DNA of 64,000 nt. Origin: Candidatus Harrisonbacteria bacterium (GTDB lineage: Bacteria; Patescibacteriota; Minisyncoccia; UBA6257; 02-FULL-45-10c). Of this stretch, positions 23,448 to 50,030 are shown piece by piece. Numbering within the stretch: position 1 is the first letter of the stretch; each line of letters starts with the position of its first letter. The DNA is taken from NCBI GenBank assembly GCA_016214655.1, contig JACROC010000005.1, positions 195,078 through 259,077 on the forward strand, read 5' to 3'. The notes beneath the pieces were generated by a model. The model was not told where the DNA came from. It searched no databases and was given only the letters and a program-made list of their open reading frames with translations. The position numbers and the translations under genes were made by a program.

Positions 23448-24590
23448 CTAAACTATTACTCCTCCACCGAGCATTCGACCCTCGTCATCATAAAATACAG
23501 CAGATTGACCGGAAGCAACGAATTTTTGGGATTTATTAAATACTAATCTAAGGTCTTGCGATGACCTTAATATTAATTTTGCCTTTGCTAAAGGTTGGCG
23601 ATAACGAACGCGAGCAAGTACTTGAGTCATGAATTTTGAATTATGAATTATGGGATTGATCAAATTAACGCCTTTCAAAATAACTTCTTTACAAAACAAA
23701 GCTGGATTATCGTCTCCTTCGGCTACAAGTAAGGTATTAGTTTTAATATCCTTTTCCGCAACATAAGACGCCCTTCGTTCATTTTGACCCTTAATTCCTG
23801 ATTCATAATTCTTAATTCCAAGATGCCGCTGGCCGATCGTATAAAAATGCGCTCCGCTATGCTCGCCAACCACCTTACCGGCGGTATTCAAAACCAAACC
23901 GCGCTTTTGCGGAAGATAATTGCCCAAAAAATCTTTAAGAGTCACTTGGCCCAAAAAACAAATCCCCTGCGAATCCTTTTTCTCCGCATTCGGCAGACCG
24001 AACTTCTTCGCCAGCTTCCTCACCTCCGGCTTGGCATAGTCCCCGATCGGAAATAAGCAATGCCTAAGCTGGTCTTGCGTCAAAGTCCAAAGAAAATAGG
24101 ATTGGTCCTTTTGCGCGTCCCGCGCAGCGTATAGGGTATAGGGTATAGGGTATAGTGATTTTTTTCTAGTTTTACTAAACCCTGAACCCTGACCCCTAAC
24201 CCCTAATCTCACATAATGCCCAGTCGCTACATAATCCGCTCCCATTTCCAGTGCCTTTTTCAAAAACAAGCCGAACTTTATCTCTTTATTGCACATCACA
24301 TCCGGATTCGGCGTAATGCCGCTTCGATAACCATCGATCATGTATTTCACCACCTTCTCTTTATATTCTTTTTCAAAATCAAAGACATAAAAAGGAATAC
24401 CCAAAACCTCCGCAGCTCTCCGCGCGTCTTCAGCATCCTGCTCCGCGCACCCGTCAACGTTATAGCATTTCATATGCGCGCCAATTACCTCATATCCTTT
24501 TTGTTTAAGCAATGCCGCGGCAACTGAAGAATCTACGCCTCCGGACATTGCACAAAAAACTTTTTTATTTTTCACGTTTGACATATTCAA
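23448..24590 (-). CDS. mnmA: tRNA-specific 2-thiouridylase MnmA
   Basis: The PP-loop reads KVFCAMSGGVDSSVAA. Conserved stretches include GHYVR..., KDQSYFLWTL and KKDSQGICFLG. It contains an in-frame insertion encoded by simple-sequence repeats (see the repeat feature). Confidence 0.85.
   Translation of the reverse strand: MNMSNVKNKKVFCAMSGGVDSSVAAALLKQKGYEVIGAHMKCYNVDGCAEQDAEDARRAAEVLGIPFYVFDFEKEYKEKVVKYMIDGYRSGITPNPDVMCNKEIKFGLFLKKALEMGADYVATGHYVRLGVRGQGSGFSKTRKKSLYPIPYTLYAARDAQKDQSYFLWTLTQDQLRHCLFPIGDYAKPEVRKLAKKFGLPNAEKKDSQGICFLGQVTLKDFLGNYLPQKRGLVLNTAGKVVGEHSGAHFYTIGQRHLGIKNYESGIKGQNERRASYVAEKDIKTNTLLVAEGDDNPALFCKEVILKGVNLINPIIHNSKFMTQVLARVRYRQPLAKAKLILRSSQDLRLVFNKSQKFVASGQSAVFYDDEGRMLGGGVIV
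24118..24210. repeat. simple-sequence inverted array (TATAGGG)x3-4 ... (AACCCTR)x4 lying in-frame inside mnmA
   Basis: The sequence is tatagggtatagggtatagggtatag ... aaccctgaaccctgacccctaacccctaa. It encodes an extra loop (LGVRGQGSGFSKTRKKSLYPIPYTLYA) relative to E. coli MnmA at the same position (RADVDGKSRLLRGL). Confidence 0.6.
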
Positions 24591-25695: not shown

Positions 25696-26979
25696 TTAAC
25701 GCGTTAAAGCGCCCAATAATAAATCTCCTACCTTATATATATCCCCCGCACCCATGGTCAAAATAATATCTCCTTTCTTCGGTTCTAATATTAGAACCGA
25801 GGCCGCATTATTAAAAGAATCAACATACCGCACATTTTTATGAAACTTTTTCATTTTATTTACTAATTGAGTTGAATGTGTCCCGTCATCTTTTTCCCGC
25901 GCCGCATAAATATCCGCCACCAGTACCGCATCGGCATCATTAAAACTTTTGGAAAAATCATTTAAAAGCAATTTAGTCCTACTGTATAGATGCGGCTGGA
26001 ATATGCAAAAAATCGCGCTATGCGGAAATGCTTGCCTGGCGCCGGCAAGCGTTGCTTTGATTTCCGTAGGATGATGTCCGTAATCGTCGTAAACATACGC
26101 ACCACTCCTAGTTTTCCCTTTATATTCAAATCTCCGCCAGGTGCCGGAAAAATTTTCCAAAGATTTCCGCGCCTCGGATTCTTTAACTTTCAATATCTTA
26201 GCCACTGCAAATGCCGCCTGCGCATTATCCAGGTTATGATCTCCAACAACTTTTAATTTTAAATTCCGCGGCGATTTGGTGTAATCAACAATCTTGCACT
26301 TTGCGTTTTTAACAACCGAATCTAGATACCTGCCGCGCGGATTACAAACTAAATAATCCTCTGAAGTTAACTTAGAAACAAACTCTGAAAACGCTTTTTG
26401 GATATTCCGCACATTTCCATAATAATCCAGGTGATCATTATCAATATTCGTAATAACAATAATCTTCGGATTTATATTCAGAAAAGACTTTTTATATTCG
26501 CAGGCCTCCACGACAAAATATTTTCTGCGTCCGGCTACAAAATTAGACTTAGAATCCTTCAATAAACTCCCAACAATAATCGTCGGATCCAGACCACTAT
26601 CCTTTAGGATAGTGCCGATCATTGCGGTTGTAGTTGTTTTTCCATGCGCGCCGGAAACCGCAATCGTATATTTATCGCGTGAAATAATTCCTAGCATCTC
26701 GGGGTAGGAAAGAGTTTGGATGCCCAGCTTTTTTGCCTTAACCAATTCTGGGTTATTTTCTTTCACGGCTGGCGTATAAACTACCAAATCAACATCTTTT
26801 AAATTTTTTTCATCATGACCAAAATAAATTTTCGCCCCGAGCTTTTCTAATTCATCAATAATCTCCGATCGCGAAACATCCGAACCGCTGACCTCTTTAC
26901 CCTCCCCCAGCATCATCCTTGCAATCGCCGAAATCCCAATTCCGCCGATGCCAATAAAATGCGCTTTCCGAATATCCAT
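25696..26979 (-). CDS. murC: UDP-N-acetylmuramate--L-alanine ligase MurC
   Basis: The N-terminus reads HFIGIGGIGISAIARMML. The Mur ligase P-loop reads AVSGAHGKTTTTAMIG. The C-terminus reads ILTMGAGDI. Confidence 0.9.
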   Translation of the reverse strand: MDIRKAHFIGIGGIGISAIARMMLGEGKEVSGSDVSRSEIIDELEKLGAKIYFGHDEKNLKDVDLVVYTPAVKENNPELVKAKKLGIQTLSYPEMLGIISRDKYTIAVSGAHGKTTTTAMIGTILKDSGLDPTIIVGSLLKDSKSNFVAGRRKYFVVEACEYKKSFLNINPKIIVITNIDNDHLDYYGNVRNIQKAFSEFVSKLTSEDYLVCNPRGRYLDSVVKNAKCKIVDYTKSPRNLKLKVVGDHNLDNAQAAFAVAKILKVKESEARKSLENFSGTWRRFEYKGKTRSGAYVYDDYGHHPTEIKATLAGARQAFPHSAIFCIFQPHLYSRTKLLLNDFSKSFNDADAVLVADIYAAREKDDGTHSTQLVNKMKKFHKNVRYVDSFNNAASVLILEPKKGDIILTMGAGDIYKVGDLLLGALTR

Positions 26980-26983
26980 AACT

Positions 26984-27961
26984 TTATTTTAAAACTATCC
27001 GGCGCAATTTGTAAGCATTCCCATGCCTCAATAATCCCAAATAAGAATTTATGATTTCTGGTTTTGGCAATTCTTGTATCCTCTTCATCATCCTTCTTTT
27101 AGTCGTTGTCCTTAATATCCGATGATCTAAAAAATTCACCCAGCCAAGAAAATCCACTCCGGAAGCAAGAGTTTTGATGGAAACTTTATTCGGGTGAAGC
27201 TCTAAAGATAATGTCTCATTCAGGAACGCTCTTATAAATAAGAGTGAGCGATTTAATGATTCTTTGTTTTCAGACAAAATCACAAAATCATCCGCATATC
27301 TTATGTAATATCTGGCCTTTAGTTTGTGCTTCATAAATCGGTCAAATTCATTCATATAGATATTGACTAGTAATTGGGAGGTTAGATTGCCTAGCGGCAA
27401 GCCGATTCCTGGCTTAACCTCAAAGCTATCAATGACTCTATCCAATAACCATAAGATATCTTTGTCTGGAATATGGCTGACCAGAATCTTCTTTAAGATG
27501 GAATGGTCAATATTGGCAAAGAATTTCTTGATATCGCACTTTAATATCCAGTAAGTTTGAGTGTTATTTTGACTGACTTTGTAGGAAAAATCCCGAAATC
27601 GGTTAATGGCTTTATGAGTTCCTTTGTTTAGACGGCAGGAATAGGAATCGGCAATAAAAATTTGGTCAAAAAATGGGTAGAGTATCCTATATATTGCGTG
27701 GTGTAATAATCTGTCTCTTACTTGGGCTTTATGGATATTTCTGGGTTTAGGGTCGCAGATATTGAATGCCTGGTACCCGCCGTGTACATACGTTTGGTTG
27801 CGAAGATCATTATGAAGCGATAGGATATTATCCATCAGATTAAAAGAGAATTCCTGGACATCTGGCTTGCTCCTTTTCCCTCTTACAAATTCTTTCCAGG
27901 CCTCTAATAAATTCTCAATGCTAATAATATCTTCAAATTTATGGCGCAATTGAATTTTCAT
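26984..27961 (-). CDS. DGR reverse transcriptase
   Basis: The 325-aa ORF contains RT motifs 1-7. YADD lies within ARYYIRYADDFVIL. The DGR-diagnostic motif 4 reads LPLGNLTSQLLVNIYMNEFD (I/LGxxxSQ). Its size is typical of DGR RTs. Confidence 0.9.
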   Translation of the reverse strand: MKIQLRHKFEDIISIENLLEAWKEFVRGKRSKPDVQEFSFNLMDNILSLHNDLRNQTYVHGGYQAFNICDPKPRNIHKAQVRDRLLHHAIYRILYPFFDQIFIADSYSCRLNKGTHKAINRFRDFSYKVSQNNTQTYWILKCDIKKFFANIDHSILKKILVSHIPDKDILWLLDRVIDSFEVKPGIGLPLGNLTSQLLVNIYMNEFDRFMKHKLKARYYIRYADDFVILSENKESLNRSLLFIRAFLNETLSLELHPNKVSIKTLASGVDFLGWVNFLDHRILRTTTKRRMMKRIQELPKPEIINSYLGLLRHGNAYKLRRIVLK

Positions 27962-27985
27962 AAAAATAATTTTTCCCGGGAAGCG

Positions 27986-27996
27986 CCCCCCCCCCC
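27986..27996. repeat. homopolymeric C11 (G11 on minus) tract in the 40-nt RT/avd divergent intergenic region
   Basis: The sequence gcg-ccccccccccc-gac lies 25 nt upstream of the RT ATG and 6 nt upstream of the avd TTG start. Confidence 0.9.
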
Positions 27997-28001
27997 GACT
28001 T

Positions 28002-28370
28002 TTGCCGCTAATCCAGAAAACTAAGGACGCCTATCTGCTTTGGTATGGCTATTACCAAATCCTGCCTAAACTCCACCGGCACTCTCTAGGTCAGAAAGTT
28101 GATACTCTTTTTGTTGAAATTATAGAAATGCTCTCAACAGCCAATTTTCTTATCAGAGAAGAAAAATTGCCCTATGTTCGTGTGGCTATAAGAAAAGCAG
28201 ATACGCTGAAGATATTTTTAATGATGCTTTGGGAAACTAAATCGCTGGATAATAAAAAATACATCGCATTATCAACACAAATAGGCGAAATAGGCAGAAT
28301 GCTAGGCGGTTGGAGCGGCCAGCTTATCAAACAAGCTCAAGATAAACAAAACTCTCCTGACAAAAAGTGA
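28002..28370 (+). CDS. avd: DGR accessory variability determinant (Avd, four-helix-bundle family)
   Basis: The 122-aa ORF starts at TTG. Its C-terminal helix TQIGEIGRMLGGWSGQLIKQAQDKQ resembles Bordetella phage bAvd AEVGRILGSWIARVNRKGQ. It is encoded on the strand opposite to RT, TR and VR. Confidence 0.75.
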   Translation: MPLIQKTKDAYLLWYGYYQILPKLHRHSLGQKVDTLFVEIIEMLSTANFLIREEKLPYVRVAIRKADTLKIFLMMLWETKSLDNKKYIALSTQIGEIGRMLGGWSGQLIKQAQDKQNSPDKK

Positions 28371-28388
28371 GGAGAGAAATGAAGAGAG

Positions 28389-28514
28389 TTTCGAGAACGG
28401 CAGACGGATCGTTAACATTCCAGTCGTTGTCAAGCCAGTTGTAGTTCCAGTTCCACCTGCCATCGTTCCAGTACAGATACAGGACGTAGCGGTTGCCATT
28501 CGGGTTCCGAAGAA
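28389..28514 (-). repeat. DGR template repeat (TR), 126 nt
   Basis: It is 111/126 identical to the VR. All 15 mismatches are T on the plus strand, which is A on the minus sense strand. The minus-strand translation is Asn-rich (RNPNGNRYVLYLYWNDGRWNWNYNWLDNDWNVNDPSAVL), the AAY-codon signature of TRs. Confidence 0.85.
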
Positions 28515-28783
28515 TTATATGGAATATCGTCTGTGCCACCACCCCTTGAATACTCTTAGAGTTGTATCGTATCCGGTATATCATTCAGTAGAATGACCTA
28601 CTGGGTTAATACCTTAATATTCCATACCAAGTATCTTCATTTTTTGTTGAAGTGTCTGCATACACCACTCTATCCGAAACCGTGATCGCGGATACTCCCG
28701 ATGTATGGATACTGGGTTCGGTAGCGGAAAACCGTAATCGTCCGCGTATTCACCTACTGCCAAATTTATTTTAGCAAAAAAAT

Positions 28784-28817
28784 AATCCCCTGCACAGGCT
28801 TGCCTGTGCAGGGGATT
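28784..28817 (-). terminator. 15-bp perfect hairpin (aatcccctgcacagg-cttg-cctgtgcaggggatt) downstream of the VR, with a U-run on minus
   Basis: The stem-loop sits about 55 nt 3' of the target-gene stop. It is followed on the minus strand by UUAUUUUUUU. It resembles the conserved GC-rich hairpin found 3' of the VR in DGRs and also acts as the target-gene terminator. Confidence 0.6.
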
Positions 28818-28870: not shown

Positions 28871-29506
28871 CTAACTTGCGAGAACGGCAGACGGACCGTC
28901 AACATCCCAGTCGCTGCCAAGCCAGTTGCAGCTCCAGTGCCACCTGCCATCGAACCAGTACAGACACAGGACGTAGCGGTCGCCATCCGGGTACCGAAGA
29001 ACCGTTCCATCAAAGAAGATGAAACGGATGTTGCCGTTCACCTTCTCTTTCCACGATTCGGGGATGAGGAGCTGGTTCTCCCAGAGCGTCTGGAAGACCT
29101 TGGCATCCAGGCGGATGTGACCCGCCTTCTTCAGCCGTTTCAGCTTTTCCTCACCGGTGATCGACGTCTCGTTCGGATTGAGCATCGTCTCGAAGCGGAC
29201 CTTGGACAGGTCGACTTCGGTGAGCGCCTCCGAACGGGCGTCCGTGTCTTCGCCGACAACCGACCAACCCTTGCCGATGAAGGCGACGGGGTCGAACGGC
29301 TTGGCGCGATCGATCTTCAGGATCTTCGGTTCCCCGACGAGGACCTTTCCGCCGTTCTTGAGGAAGGCAGTGAACTGCTGTCCCGCCTGACGAGGGTCGT
29401 TGATGATTTTCTGGATGGTGTCGCTATCCAGATTGTCCCAGTCTGCGTTGTTAGCGAGGACTGAGAACAGGTTGAGGGACTGACCGGTAGTGATGGCTTT
29501 TCCCAT
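28871..29506 (-). CDS. DGR target protein (variable C-terminal domain; likely C-type-lectin/FGE-like fold)
   Basis: The 211-aa ORF is preceded by AAGGAG about 8 nt upstream. Its C-terminal 41 aa (RYPDGDRYVLCLYWFDGRWHWSCNWLGSDWDVDGPSAVL) are encoded by the VR. The gene body is about 57% GC against about 37% for the adjacent RT. Confidence 0.85.
   Translation of the reverse strand: MGKAITTGQSLNLFSVLANNADWDNLDSDTIQKIINDPRQAGQQFTAFLKNGGKVLVGEPKILKIDRAKPFDPVAFIGKGWSVVGEDTDARSEALTEVDLSKVRFETMLNPNETSITGEEKLKRLKKAGHIRLDAKVFQTLWENQLLIPESWKEKVNGNIRFIFFDGTVLRYPDGDRYVLCLYWFDGRWHWSCNWLGSDWDVDGPSAVLAS
28876..29001 (-). repeat. DGR variable repeat (VR), 126 nt, ending 5 nt before the target stop codon
   Basis: It is the counterpart of the TR. 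On the sense strand the 15 differences are A to G x10, A to C x2 and A to T x3. The 3' end of the VR (CTCGCAAG) diverges from the TR (CTCGAAAC), as expected for IMH versus IMH*. Confidence 0.85.
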
Positions 29507-29701
29507 TTCCGTTTCTCCTTTTTATCCGTTGCCTGACCGCCGTCCGTATTTGGCAGCCATAGCCAGAAAACCTCAATATTTAAGGGCTTTTGGCTATGGC
29601 CATCTTACAAATTACTAAATATAGTATAGCACTATTAGAGCTATTTTGTCAAGTTCGCCGTAGATAAACTACAATTATTTTTAACAACTAATATGAGGAA
29701 A

Positions 29702-29799
29702 TAAAATAAGGTTTTTGGATATTCAGGCTGGCGGTGGGATCGATTTCGCTCCCTTTAGGGAGCTTTATAAATATAGGCGATATCCAAAAACCTTATTTT
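29702..29799. repeat. 20-bp perfect inverted repeat (aaaataaggtttttggatat / atatccaaaaaccttatttt) enclosing a 58-nt loop with an inner hairpin (gctccc-ttta-gggagc)
   Basis: It lies between the DGR target gene start and the stop of the upstream nucleotidyltransferase gene, whose stop it overlaps. Confidence 0.6.
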
Positions 29800-30551
29800 G
29801 TTTCCGAATCCCACTCTTTAATGGCTTTTTCCCAACGCTGTAAATTCCCACAGTCATGCCACTTCCCTTTTGATTTATAAGCCGCAAGTTTTCGTTCGGC
29901 GGCAAGCTTCGGAAAAAGGTCCTTTTCAATCATTAAAAATTTTTCACCGCTTTGTATTTTGTCGCTTAAATGTTCACGCACTTTCGGGTCAATTAAATAA
30001 AGACCCGAAGAAATAAAATTTGTCGGCGGATTTTCCGGTTTTTCCAAAAAACTGTGGATGTGATCGCCATCGCAAATTAAAACACCATACTCCTGCGGAT
30101 TTGATACTTCCACTGCCGCAATAGTTGCCAATCCTCCGACCTTGCGATGGTGGGCCGCCATTTCAGTCAAATTTACCTCTTTTAATTCATCGCCATTAGT
30201 TAAGAAAAATGGCTCACTGCCAGTCCAGGTATGTAGCTTATGTGCCCAATAGCCAAGCGTACCCATTGGCTCCTCCTCAACCATCAAATTTACCCACACG
30301 CCGCCAAGGTCATTCTGCCAACGCCGCAACCACCAAGAAAAATCTTCAAAATCACCTTGCCTGACCGTAATAGCAACTTCTTCTATGCCATGCTTTTTAA
30401 ACATCTCGATCAAATAATTTATGATCGGTTTTTTATTGACAGTTAAAAGCGGTTTTGGAGTTTCCAAGGTCACCGGATAAAGACGAGCGCCTTTCCCGCC
30501 GGCTAAAATTATTGCTTTGCGAACTTTCTGCATATTATTAAAATACAACAA
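29793..30551 (-). CDS. sugar-phosphate nucleotidyltransferase (RfbA/GlmU-N-like)
   Basis: The N-terminal signature KAIILAGGKGARLYPVTLETPKPLL is that of the NTP_transferase family. Confidence 0.75.
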   Translation of the reverse strand: MLYFNNMQKVRKAIILAGGKGARLYPVTLETPKPLLTVNKKPIINYLIEMFKKHGIEEVAITVRQGDFEDFSWWLRRWQNDLGGVWVNLMVEEEPMGTLGYWAHKLHTWTGSEPFFLTNGDELKEVNLTEMAAHHRKVGGLATIAAVEVSNPQEYGVLICDGDHIHSFLEKPENPPTNFISSGLYLIDPKVREHLSDKIQSGEKFLMIEKDLFPKLAAERKLAAYKSKGKWHDCGNLQRWEKAIKEWDSETK

Positions 30552-49949: not shown

Positions 49950-50030
49950 CGGTTAGAGTTTAGTGGTTAGGATTTAAAAATTTTTATAAATTAAATTCTA
50001 TACCCTATACTCTATACCCTATACCCTAAA
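49946..50030. repeat. inverted short-repeat array immediately upstream of dnaB ((TTAGCGG/TTAGTGG)-like x4 ... (TATACCC)x4)
   Basis: The sequence is tttagcggttagagtttagtggttagg - AT spacer - ctataccctatactctataccctataccctaa. It shares the TATAGGG unit, in opposite orientation, with the array inside mnmA, and tagcggttag with 3700..3730. Confidence 0.6.

Follow-up and report, generated by a model that had tools for sequence, protein, structure and literature searches.

The window, by which we mean the whole stretch of 64,000 nucleotides that was analysed, contains a DGR. A gene for a reverse transcriptase (RT) lies next to a template repeat (TR), the differences between TR and VR are confined to adenines of the TR (15 of 15 mismatches over 126 nt), the VR is located at the 3´ end of a target gene, ending 5 nt before its stop codon, and an avd gene is present. 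P0001, which comes from a Candidatus Harrisonbacteria MAG, has 100% identity to the RT, and the avd product matches bAvd (PF22296) over residues 4–105 with an E value of 2e-10 and 41.6 bits against a cut-off of 40. Exact-protein look-ups with the RT and the avd product of the window returned no record, and Rfam gave no match between positions 26500 and 30000. On the minus strand the order is promoter-like site, target gene with VR, GC-rich hairpin, TR, inverted avd, G-run and RT. The features are located as follows.

26984..27961, minus strand: DGR reverse transcriptase (Pfam RVT_1, E 1.4e-24)
27928..27933, plus strand: -10-like hexamer TATCTT, putative avd promoter element, 7 nt upstream of the ATG at 27941
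27941..27961, both strands: head-to-head overlap (21 nt) of the avd-strand ORF with RT codons 1–7, under strong synonymous constraint
27941..28024, plus strand: avd-strand ORF containing the C-run; ATG 27941–27943 antisense to the RT His7 codon CAT, stop codon 28022–28024
27986..27996, plus strand: C11 homopolymer, a simple-sequence repeat; 159 of 175 related loci have a run there too
28002..28370, plus strand: avd core, counted from the TTG (Leu) codon, encoding the bAvd four-helix-bundle accessory protein (Pfam PF22296)
28342..28376, minus strand: hairpin CTCTCCTCAC / GTCAGGAGAG with T-tract, adjoining the TR 3´ end; overlaps with the stop codon of avd and resembles a terminator on the RT strand
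28389..28514, minus strand: TR, 126 nt, about 430 nt from the RT start
28784..28817, minus strand: 15-bp GC-rich hairpin with T-tract, downstream of the VR
28871..29506, minus strand: DGR target gene, with the VR (28876–29001) at its 3´ end
29623..29652, minus strand: sigma-70-like promoter (TTGACA, 18 nt, TATACT, with TG) upstream of the target gene, 11 of 12 matches

The hairpin that adjoins the TR has an equivalent with a T-rich tail after the TR in 117 of 126 loci, the stem sequences differing from locus to locus. Since this hairpin is terminator-like, the RT gene likely needs a promoter of its own, and it is probably transcribed apart from the TR RNA, which would end at the hairpin 3´ of the TR. 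The TR RNA could have its 3´ end in this same hairpin (28342–28376), or the hairpin could be a structure needed for priming. From the VR-downstream hairpin to the TR there are approximately 270 nt (28515–28783, minus strand) in which no notable ORF, Rfam match or promoter was seen, and in which one would expect the promoter of the TR, together with any 5´ portion of the DGR RNA.

Two further kinds of repeats were seen in the window. A 26-nt inverted repeat (29697–29722 and 29780–29805, 96% complementary, with 57 nt between the arms) is located upstream of the target-gene promoter and at the 3´ end of the ORF 29793–30551, and may act as a terminator or form a hairpin with a regulatory role. Two tandem arrays with a 7-nt unit, perfect or nearly so, are found about 25.8 kb apart, GTATAGG x3.9 at 24129–24155, inside the ORF 23448–24590, and CTATACC x4.4 at 49998–50028; the two units are reverse complements of each other.

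Eleven uninterrupted C, or G11 if read on the RT strand, occupy positions 27986–27996 of the plus strand. The tract is located between the RT ATG (27961–27959, minus strand) and the TTG at 28002 with which the longest ORF of avd opens, in an interval of 40 nt (27962–28001). A preliminary description of this DNA had reported the tract at this place, which we confirm, but its statement that the tract makes up most of the interval was too strong, as the tract fills 11 of the 40 nt (28%). C11 is the sole G/C homopolymer of at least 7 nt in the 64 kb, which have a G+C content of 41.7%, and the chance expectation for C runs of at least 11 nt in the window is 0.008 if bases are taken as independent and 0.028 with a first-order Markov model. 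Like the repeat of a contingency locus, the tract is thus uninterrupted, above the slippage threshold and over-represented compared to the surrounding DNA. Folding of the 40-nt interval was no better than that of shuffled sequence on either strand (z +0.8 and +1.5). The tract is genuinely present; its exact length of 11 is taken from the assembly alone.

Related loci were collected by scanning for the RT protein in contigs of one genome per species and in metagenome contigs, which gave 160 loci with 63–77% RT identity, nearly all of them from Patescibacteria; further loci were added via exact-protein look-ups. In nearly all loci avd is divergent from the RT gene and separated from it by a short interval. 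A search anchored on avd found a run of G6 to G14 (on the RT strand) at most 60 nt from the avd start in 159 of the 175 loci with an upstream avd match, a number that includes repeated assemblies of the same strains and corresponds to about 127 non-redundant loci with a G-run. The modal run length is 9–10. At the same site, the G-run is replaced by (GA)n, (GT)n or (CT)n in 10 of the 175 loci, and six have no repeat or a decayed remnant. The non-redundant DNA around the loci, 778 kb in all, has just one further G/C run of at least 8 nt, compared to the 159 at the avd site. The uninterrupted repeat is retained in more than 90% of the loci despite RT divergence to 55–77% identity, and it is also carried by the closed genome CP066687.1, whose avd is annotated as 135 aa and read through the run. 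All repeat types at the site (G/C, GA, GT and CT) are stop-free in every frame on the avd strand. The loci share ancestry, so that neither these counts nor those given below are independent events, and the p-values overstate independence.

What is conserved is therefore a simple-sequence repeat at one precise site, with its sequence and length free to differ. Retention of the kind of repeat, but not of its sequence or length, rules out an artefact and disfavours a sequence-specific binding site or a single non-B structure. We also considered that the G-run might pair with TTTCTCTCC, a conserved pyrimidine stretch 3´ of the TR, and rejected this idea: the stretch is the 5´ arm of the terminator-like hairpin, whose stem is variable, and such pairing does not fit the loci with (GT)n or (CT)n. 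We are highly confident that in this clade of DGRs the repeat is under selection. No description of such a repeat in any DGR was found in the literature that we could search, a search whose coverage did not extend to the survey of CPR DGRs by Paul et al. 2017.

The comparison also provided observations on the evolution and annotation of these loci. The identities of RT and Avd are only weakly correlated across the loci L001–L175 (Spearman 0.24). L027 and L146 have 86.6% RT identity and 41% Avd identity, with 96% nucleotide identity over most of the RT gene and a breakpoint about 200 nt inside it, and as judged from such loci DGR modules evidently recombine. The RT is a protein of about 325 aa, with database entries between 310 and 391 aa long (L082–L086, L176, L177, L179, L087–L095, L191–L193); in these loci gene callers often miss or truncate avd and carry the RT upstream across the G-run.

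An ATG is located on the avd strand 20 nt inside the RT gene, antisense of RT codon 7, and several observations suggest that it is maintained. For RT His7, 104 of 106 loci use CAT, compared to 58% CAT among the other His codons of the same genes (p 2e-22). In RT codons 2–6, the Leu and Ser codons that would give stops on the opposite strand (TTA, CTA and TCA) occur in none of 77 cases where 21.2 are expected (p 1.6e-11), although AT-rich codons are otherwise favoured there, and they return to the expected rate from RT codon 13 on. The synonymous constraint is extreme in RT codons 2–7 and has faded by about codon 13. Codon usage in RT codons 2–7 of the window and its equivalents (L001–L193) is 98% for AAA, 75% for TTG against 22% expected, and 98% for CAT against 58%. 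In 87 of 92 loci no stop interrupts the frame of the ATG before the run is reached, compared to 57 +/- 4.5 in shuffled sequences. On the other side of the run, no in-frame stop is found between the run and avd in any of 127 loci, compared to 20.4 +/- 3.9 in shuffles, while the other two frames contain stops in 9 and 5 loci. The open frame between RT start and run could partly reflect conserved ribosome-binding or promoter sequence of the RT gene.

By these signatures, both flanks of the run are evidently maintained as coding sequence on the avd strand, and the 40 nt between RT and avd are probably not intergenic. In silico, the run falls within an ORF, as judged from conservation of the ATG, from the missing antisense stops and from frames that are open to either side of it. 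A -10-like hexamer is located at a spacing of exactly 7 nt before the antisense ATG in 76 of 103 loci (TATCTT in the window), in a region that doubles as code for the conserved RT residues Asp-Ile-Ile; this spacing suggests a leaderless or short-leader avd mRNA.

The codon at avd residue 1 points in the same direction for part of the loci only. It encodes Leu in 98 of 127 loci (TTG 53, TTA 17, CTT 12, CTG 12 and CTA 4), and TTG makes up 54% of these Leu codons compared to 20% in the background. A Leu codon that is not a start codon (TTA, CTT or CTA) is present in 33 of the 127 loci, and a canonical in-frame start is wholly absent in 32 of 127; about a third of the loci would, by their codons, be unable to start avd at residue 1. 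In-frame upstream starts are not enriched among the loci without a residue-1 start. Many loci have a GGA or AGGA motif between the run and avd residue 1, and together with the enrichment of TTG this makes a run-independent avd start plausible in about half of the loci, the window included. The preliminary description had treated the interval as a divergent promoter region with TTG as the avd start. The conserved ORF from the ATG at 27941 crosses this interval, but the TTG may still initiate; it is probably not the sole avd start and perhaps not the main one. We know of no characterised Avd with an N-terminal extension.

In the window, the ORF that starts at ATG 27941 is MAQLNFHKNNFSREAPPPPTFAANPEN (27 aa); with C11 it is out of the avd frame and stops at 28022–28024. 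Recomputed in silico with C10, the ORF from the same ATG reads MAQLNFHKNNFSREAPPPRLLPLIQKTKDAYLLWY... and is fused to avd, whereas with C12 it stops after 23 codons. Judged by its frame, the C11 allele is OFF with respect to the ATG, and alleles with C10 or C13 would be ON. In 26 of 94 loci (about 28% of the assemblies) the ATG shares the frame of avd; in the other 64 loci with an ORF reaching the run, the ORF ends at a median of 23–29 codons. Out-of-frame ORFs end at a median of 19–32 nt past the avd residue-1 codon and thus overlap the TTG start. The three frame classes contain 27, 43 and 34 loci (p 0.16), so that the in-frame share equals the random expectation and gives no positive sign that the fused product is favoured. 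Flanks that are both coding and yet mostly out of frame with each other are the usual signature of an intragenic slipped-strand switch.

Three sets of near-identical loci differ in run length. L188 has G9 and an Avd ORF of 130 aa that begins at the upstream ATG, L189 and L190 have G10 and an ORF of 33 aa; the RT protein is identical in all three, and L188 differs from L189 by one substitution in 1965 nt. The accessions behind L188–L190 are ERZ4903072, ERZ27254763 and ERZ4903137. L184 (G10) and L185/L186 (G9) are separated by no substitution in 3.4 kb; apart from the run they differ only in a second 1-nt indel, about 11 nt away from it (AAGG vs AAGAG), by which total length and frame are preserved. 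This second indel looks like a compensating change; it might also be an effect of homopolymer sequencing. L051 (G11) and L159 (G8) have one mismatch in 2 kb. The preliminary description took invariance of the tract among related strains as a sign against a switch, and on this point the sets differ: the three sets just described vary, but three of the five sets with identical RT are invariant (G10 in six assemblies, G9 in four and G8 in three). Two sets, with the RT proteins P0102 and P0074, are uninformative as evidence on length and were set aside, since here the RT was called through the run and protein identity forces equal length. At 70–80% RT identity, differences in run length are already as large as between random pairs. 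Nine contig ends are located 0–49 nt upstream of the RT gene, compared to about 2.3 per 50-nt bin elsewhere (four- to five-fold), three contigs start within the repeat, and N-gaps adjoin the run in the MAG scaffolds L042 and L043. Contig breaks at the repeat fit heterogeneity at the read level or poor sequencing through the run.

The reading that we prefer, with a probability of roughly 60%, is that the C-run is a slipped-strand, frame-shifting switch of avd. The hypermutable run would be located within the 5´ end of the avd reading frame, where it is read as Pro-Pro-Pro from the ATG at 27941. Slipped-strand mispairing at replication would add or remove a C and thereby bring the ATG into or out of the avd frame, with the products being an Avd of about 130–138 aa (ON) or a peptide of 14–33 aa (OFF). 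The TTG at 28002, possibly a weak start, might supply a low level of Avd that does not depend on the run. In Bordetella phage BPP-1, the sole DGR studied biochemically, Avd and RT are both required for adenine-mutagenic cDNA synthesis. If the same requirement applies here, the length of the run would gate DGR hypermutation in a stochastic and reversible manner. The wider proposition is that throughout a large group of Patescibacteria the accessory protein, and with it targeted diversification, is stochastically switched ON and OFF by a slipped-strand repeat within the 5´ end of avd, that most populations are OFF and that the avd start lies antisense in RT codon 7, so that RT and avd overlap head to head; we consider this to be slightly better than an even bet.

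The preliminary description had also proposed a slipped-strand switch of diversification, acting however through the spacing or geometry of a promoter. A conserved, site-specific and length-polymorphic repeat at the RT/avd junction is indeed what we find, but the mechanism via promoter spacing is probably wrong. According to such a transcriptional switch or rheostat, the length of the run would set the spacing or phasing of a promoter for RT and/or avd, in the style of the tracts that are located in promoters of Neisseria and Haemophilus. The run does lie between divergent genes that both need nearby promoters, the terminator-like hairpin after the TR suggests a separate RT promoter, and in one subclade the order is run, TAGAAT, 7 nt and RT ATG, which would put the run into the spacer of an RT promoter. 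A -10-like hexamer is located 7 nt before the RT start in 22 loci and directly after the run in 17. Nevertheless, -10-like hexamers adjoining the run are not enriched (24 loci observed, 24.8 expected from shuffles), a scan of the interval between RT and avd for consensus promoters found nothing, no -35/-10 pair flanks the run consistently, and run length shows neither compensation by nor correlation with the lengths of the flanks. The run is located 5–12 nt from the first conserved avd codon in most loci and usually 13–25 nt from the RT ATG; where the RT ATG is up to 58, 118 or 148 nt away, the run is still 8–12 nt from avd (8–10 nt in the loci with 118–148 nt). A constant distance to avd while the distance to RT varies shows that the run travels with avd, and since 5–12 nt cannot hold a -10 element plus discriminator, the run is probably not the spacer of an avd promoter. 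In addition, the coding signatures on both sides would stay without explanation. We therefore regard transcriptional control by the run as unlikely.

Of comparable standing, and by a small degree less improbable, is a translated leader without heritable switching, in which EF-P-dependent stalling at poly-proline or slippage of the polymerase or ribosome would tune Avd constitutively. Here, the leader ORF is conserved although about 72% of the loci are out of frame, the C-run gives Pro-Pro-Pro in every frame, and the out-of-frame ORFs overlap a TTG start that is enriched at residue 1. A need for proline would however tolerate mixed CCN codons, whereas these AT-rich genomes have pure homopolymers, and the 10 loci with dinucleotide repeats encode no proline. 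The amino acids are not conserved over the nucleotides at this site, contrary to what a poly-proline leader would require. The lack of in-frame stops between run and avd (0 loci) suggests that ribosomes read from the run into avd, and transcriptional slippage is best documented on A/T runs. The proline-stalling version predicts that regulation is kept if the C-run is replaced by CCACCTCCA, and CCACCTCCACC in place of the run would distinguish an effect of slippage from proline coding. It is rather improbable that the run is a structural DNA element (non-B, absorbing supercoils), a recombination junction between RT and avd or a functionless mutational hotspot. The poor correlation between RT and Avd similarity and the module swap between L027 and L146 would agree with a junction, but this clearest recombinant pair breaks inside RT, away from the run. 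G/C runs and (GA)n can form triplex DNA, but there is no single non-B structure that (GT)n and (CT)n would have in common with G/C runs, and the interval folds no better than shuffled sequence on both strands. A repeat without function would be expected to decay by interruptions, yet more than 90% of the diverged loci keep it uninterrupted. That the run is an artefact of assembly or sequencing, which the preliminary description had allowed for, has a negligible probability. Homopolymers are error-prone and contigs often break at this site, but the feature is found at the same site in more than 150 loci (159 of 175) from many independent projects and platforms, including the closed genome CP066687.1, and identical lengths recur in three to six independent assemblies of the same strain.

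CPR bacteria have the densest known concentration of DGRs, and to our knowledge the regulation of DGR activity is largely unknown outside one phage system. If a frame-shifting switch of avd is indeed at work, targeted hypermutation would be bet-hedged at the level of the population, with most cells having a fixed receptor and a minority diversifying. This would be a two-tier evolvability, in which the DGR is placed under a second, simpler hypermutable device. The repeat causes a systematic misannotation of avd and RT in this clade, in which avd is also often assigned a wrong start. For reconstitution of a CPR DGR, the frame analysis points to the allele that is expected to be active and to the probable start of Avd. 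A switch of this kind would be readable in existing metagenomes, by comparing the run-length alleles with the microdiversity of the VR.

Repeats that change gene expression are well known in other bacteria, either within genes or in promoters. Phase variation by intragenic repeats is found near the 5´ ends of genes with poly-G/C tracts in Neisseria (pilC) and Campylobacter jejuni and with CT repeats in Helicobacter pylori oipA. As in these contingency loci, an uninterrupted G/C run of about 8–13 nt or a dinucleotide repeat is located near the 5´ end of the ORF, the coding flanks are kept, close relatives differ in their frame state, and one unit separates ON from OFF alleles. In those loci, surface or restriction-modification genes of host-adapted pathogens are controlled. 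Here, the controlled gene would be that of an accessory protein of an RT-based mutator, the hosts are Patescibacteria with a free-living or episymbiotic life, the start codon of the switched gene would lie inside the RT gene on the opposite strand, and the switching itself is a prediction. Promoter repeats include the (TA)n between the divergent hifA and hifB genes of Haemophilus influenzae and the poly-G/C tracts in the porA and opc promoters of Neisseria meningitidis. The arrangement at hifA/hifB is similar in that the repeat is located between divergent genes of one functional unit; however, unlike in hifAB, porA and opc, no -35/-10 elements are recognisable around the C-run, which tracks the avd start and has coding signatures on both sides. 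By analogy, the behaviour of the C-run matches intragenic repeat phase variation and not the promoter-spacer type.

Programmed slippage or frameshifting at homopolymers occurs in Shigella mxiE and Thermus dnaX. There, too, a homopolymer joins two conserved reading frames, but those are usually A/T runs of fixed length with a constant genomic frame, whereas here the length varies and all three frames are common. The DGR of BPP-1 (mtd-VR, avd, TR, brt) resembles the one described here in having RT, Avd, an adenine-specific TR/VR pair, a target gene with the VR at its 3´ end and, downstream of that, a hairpin. It differs in that avd is here inverted relative to TR and RT and overlaps RT head to head, and in that the DGR described here has a terminator-like hairpin after the TR and a simple-sequence repeat in the 5´ end of avd.
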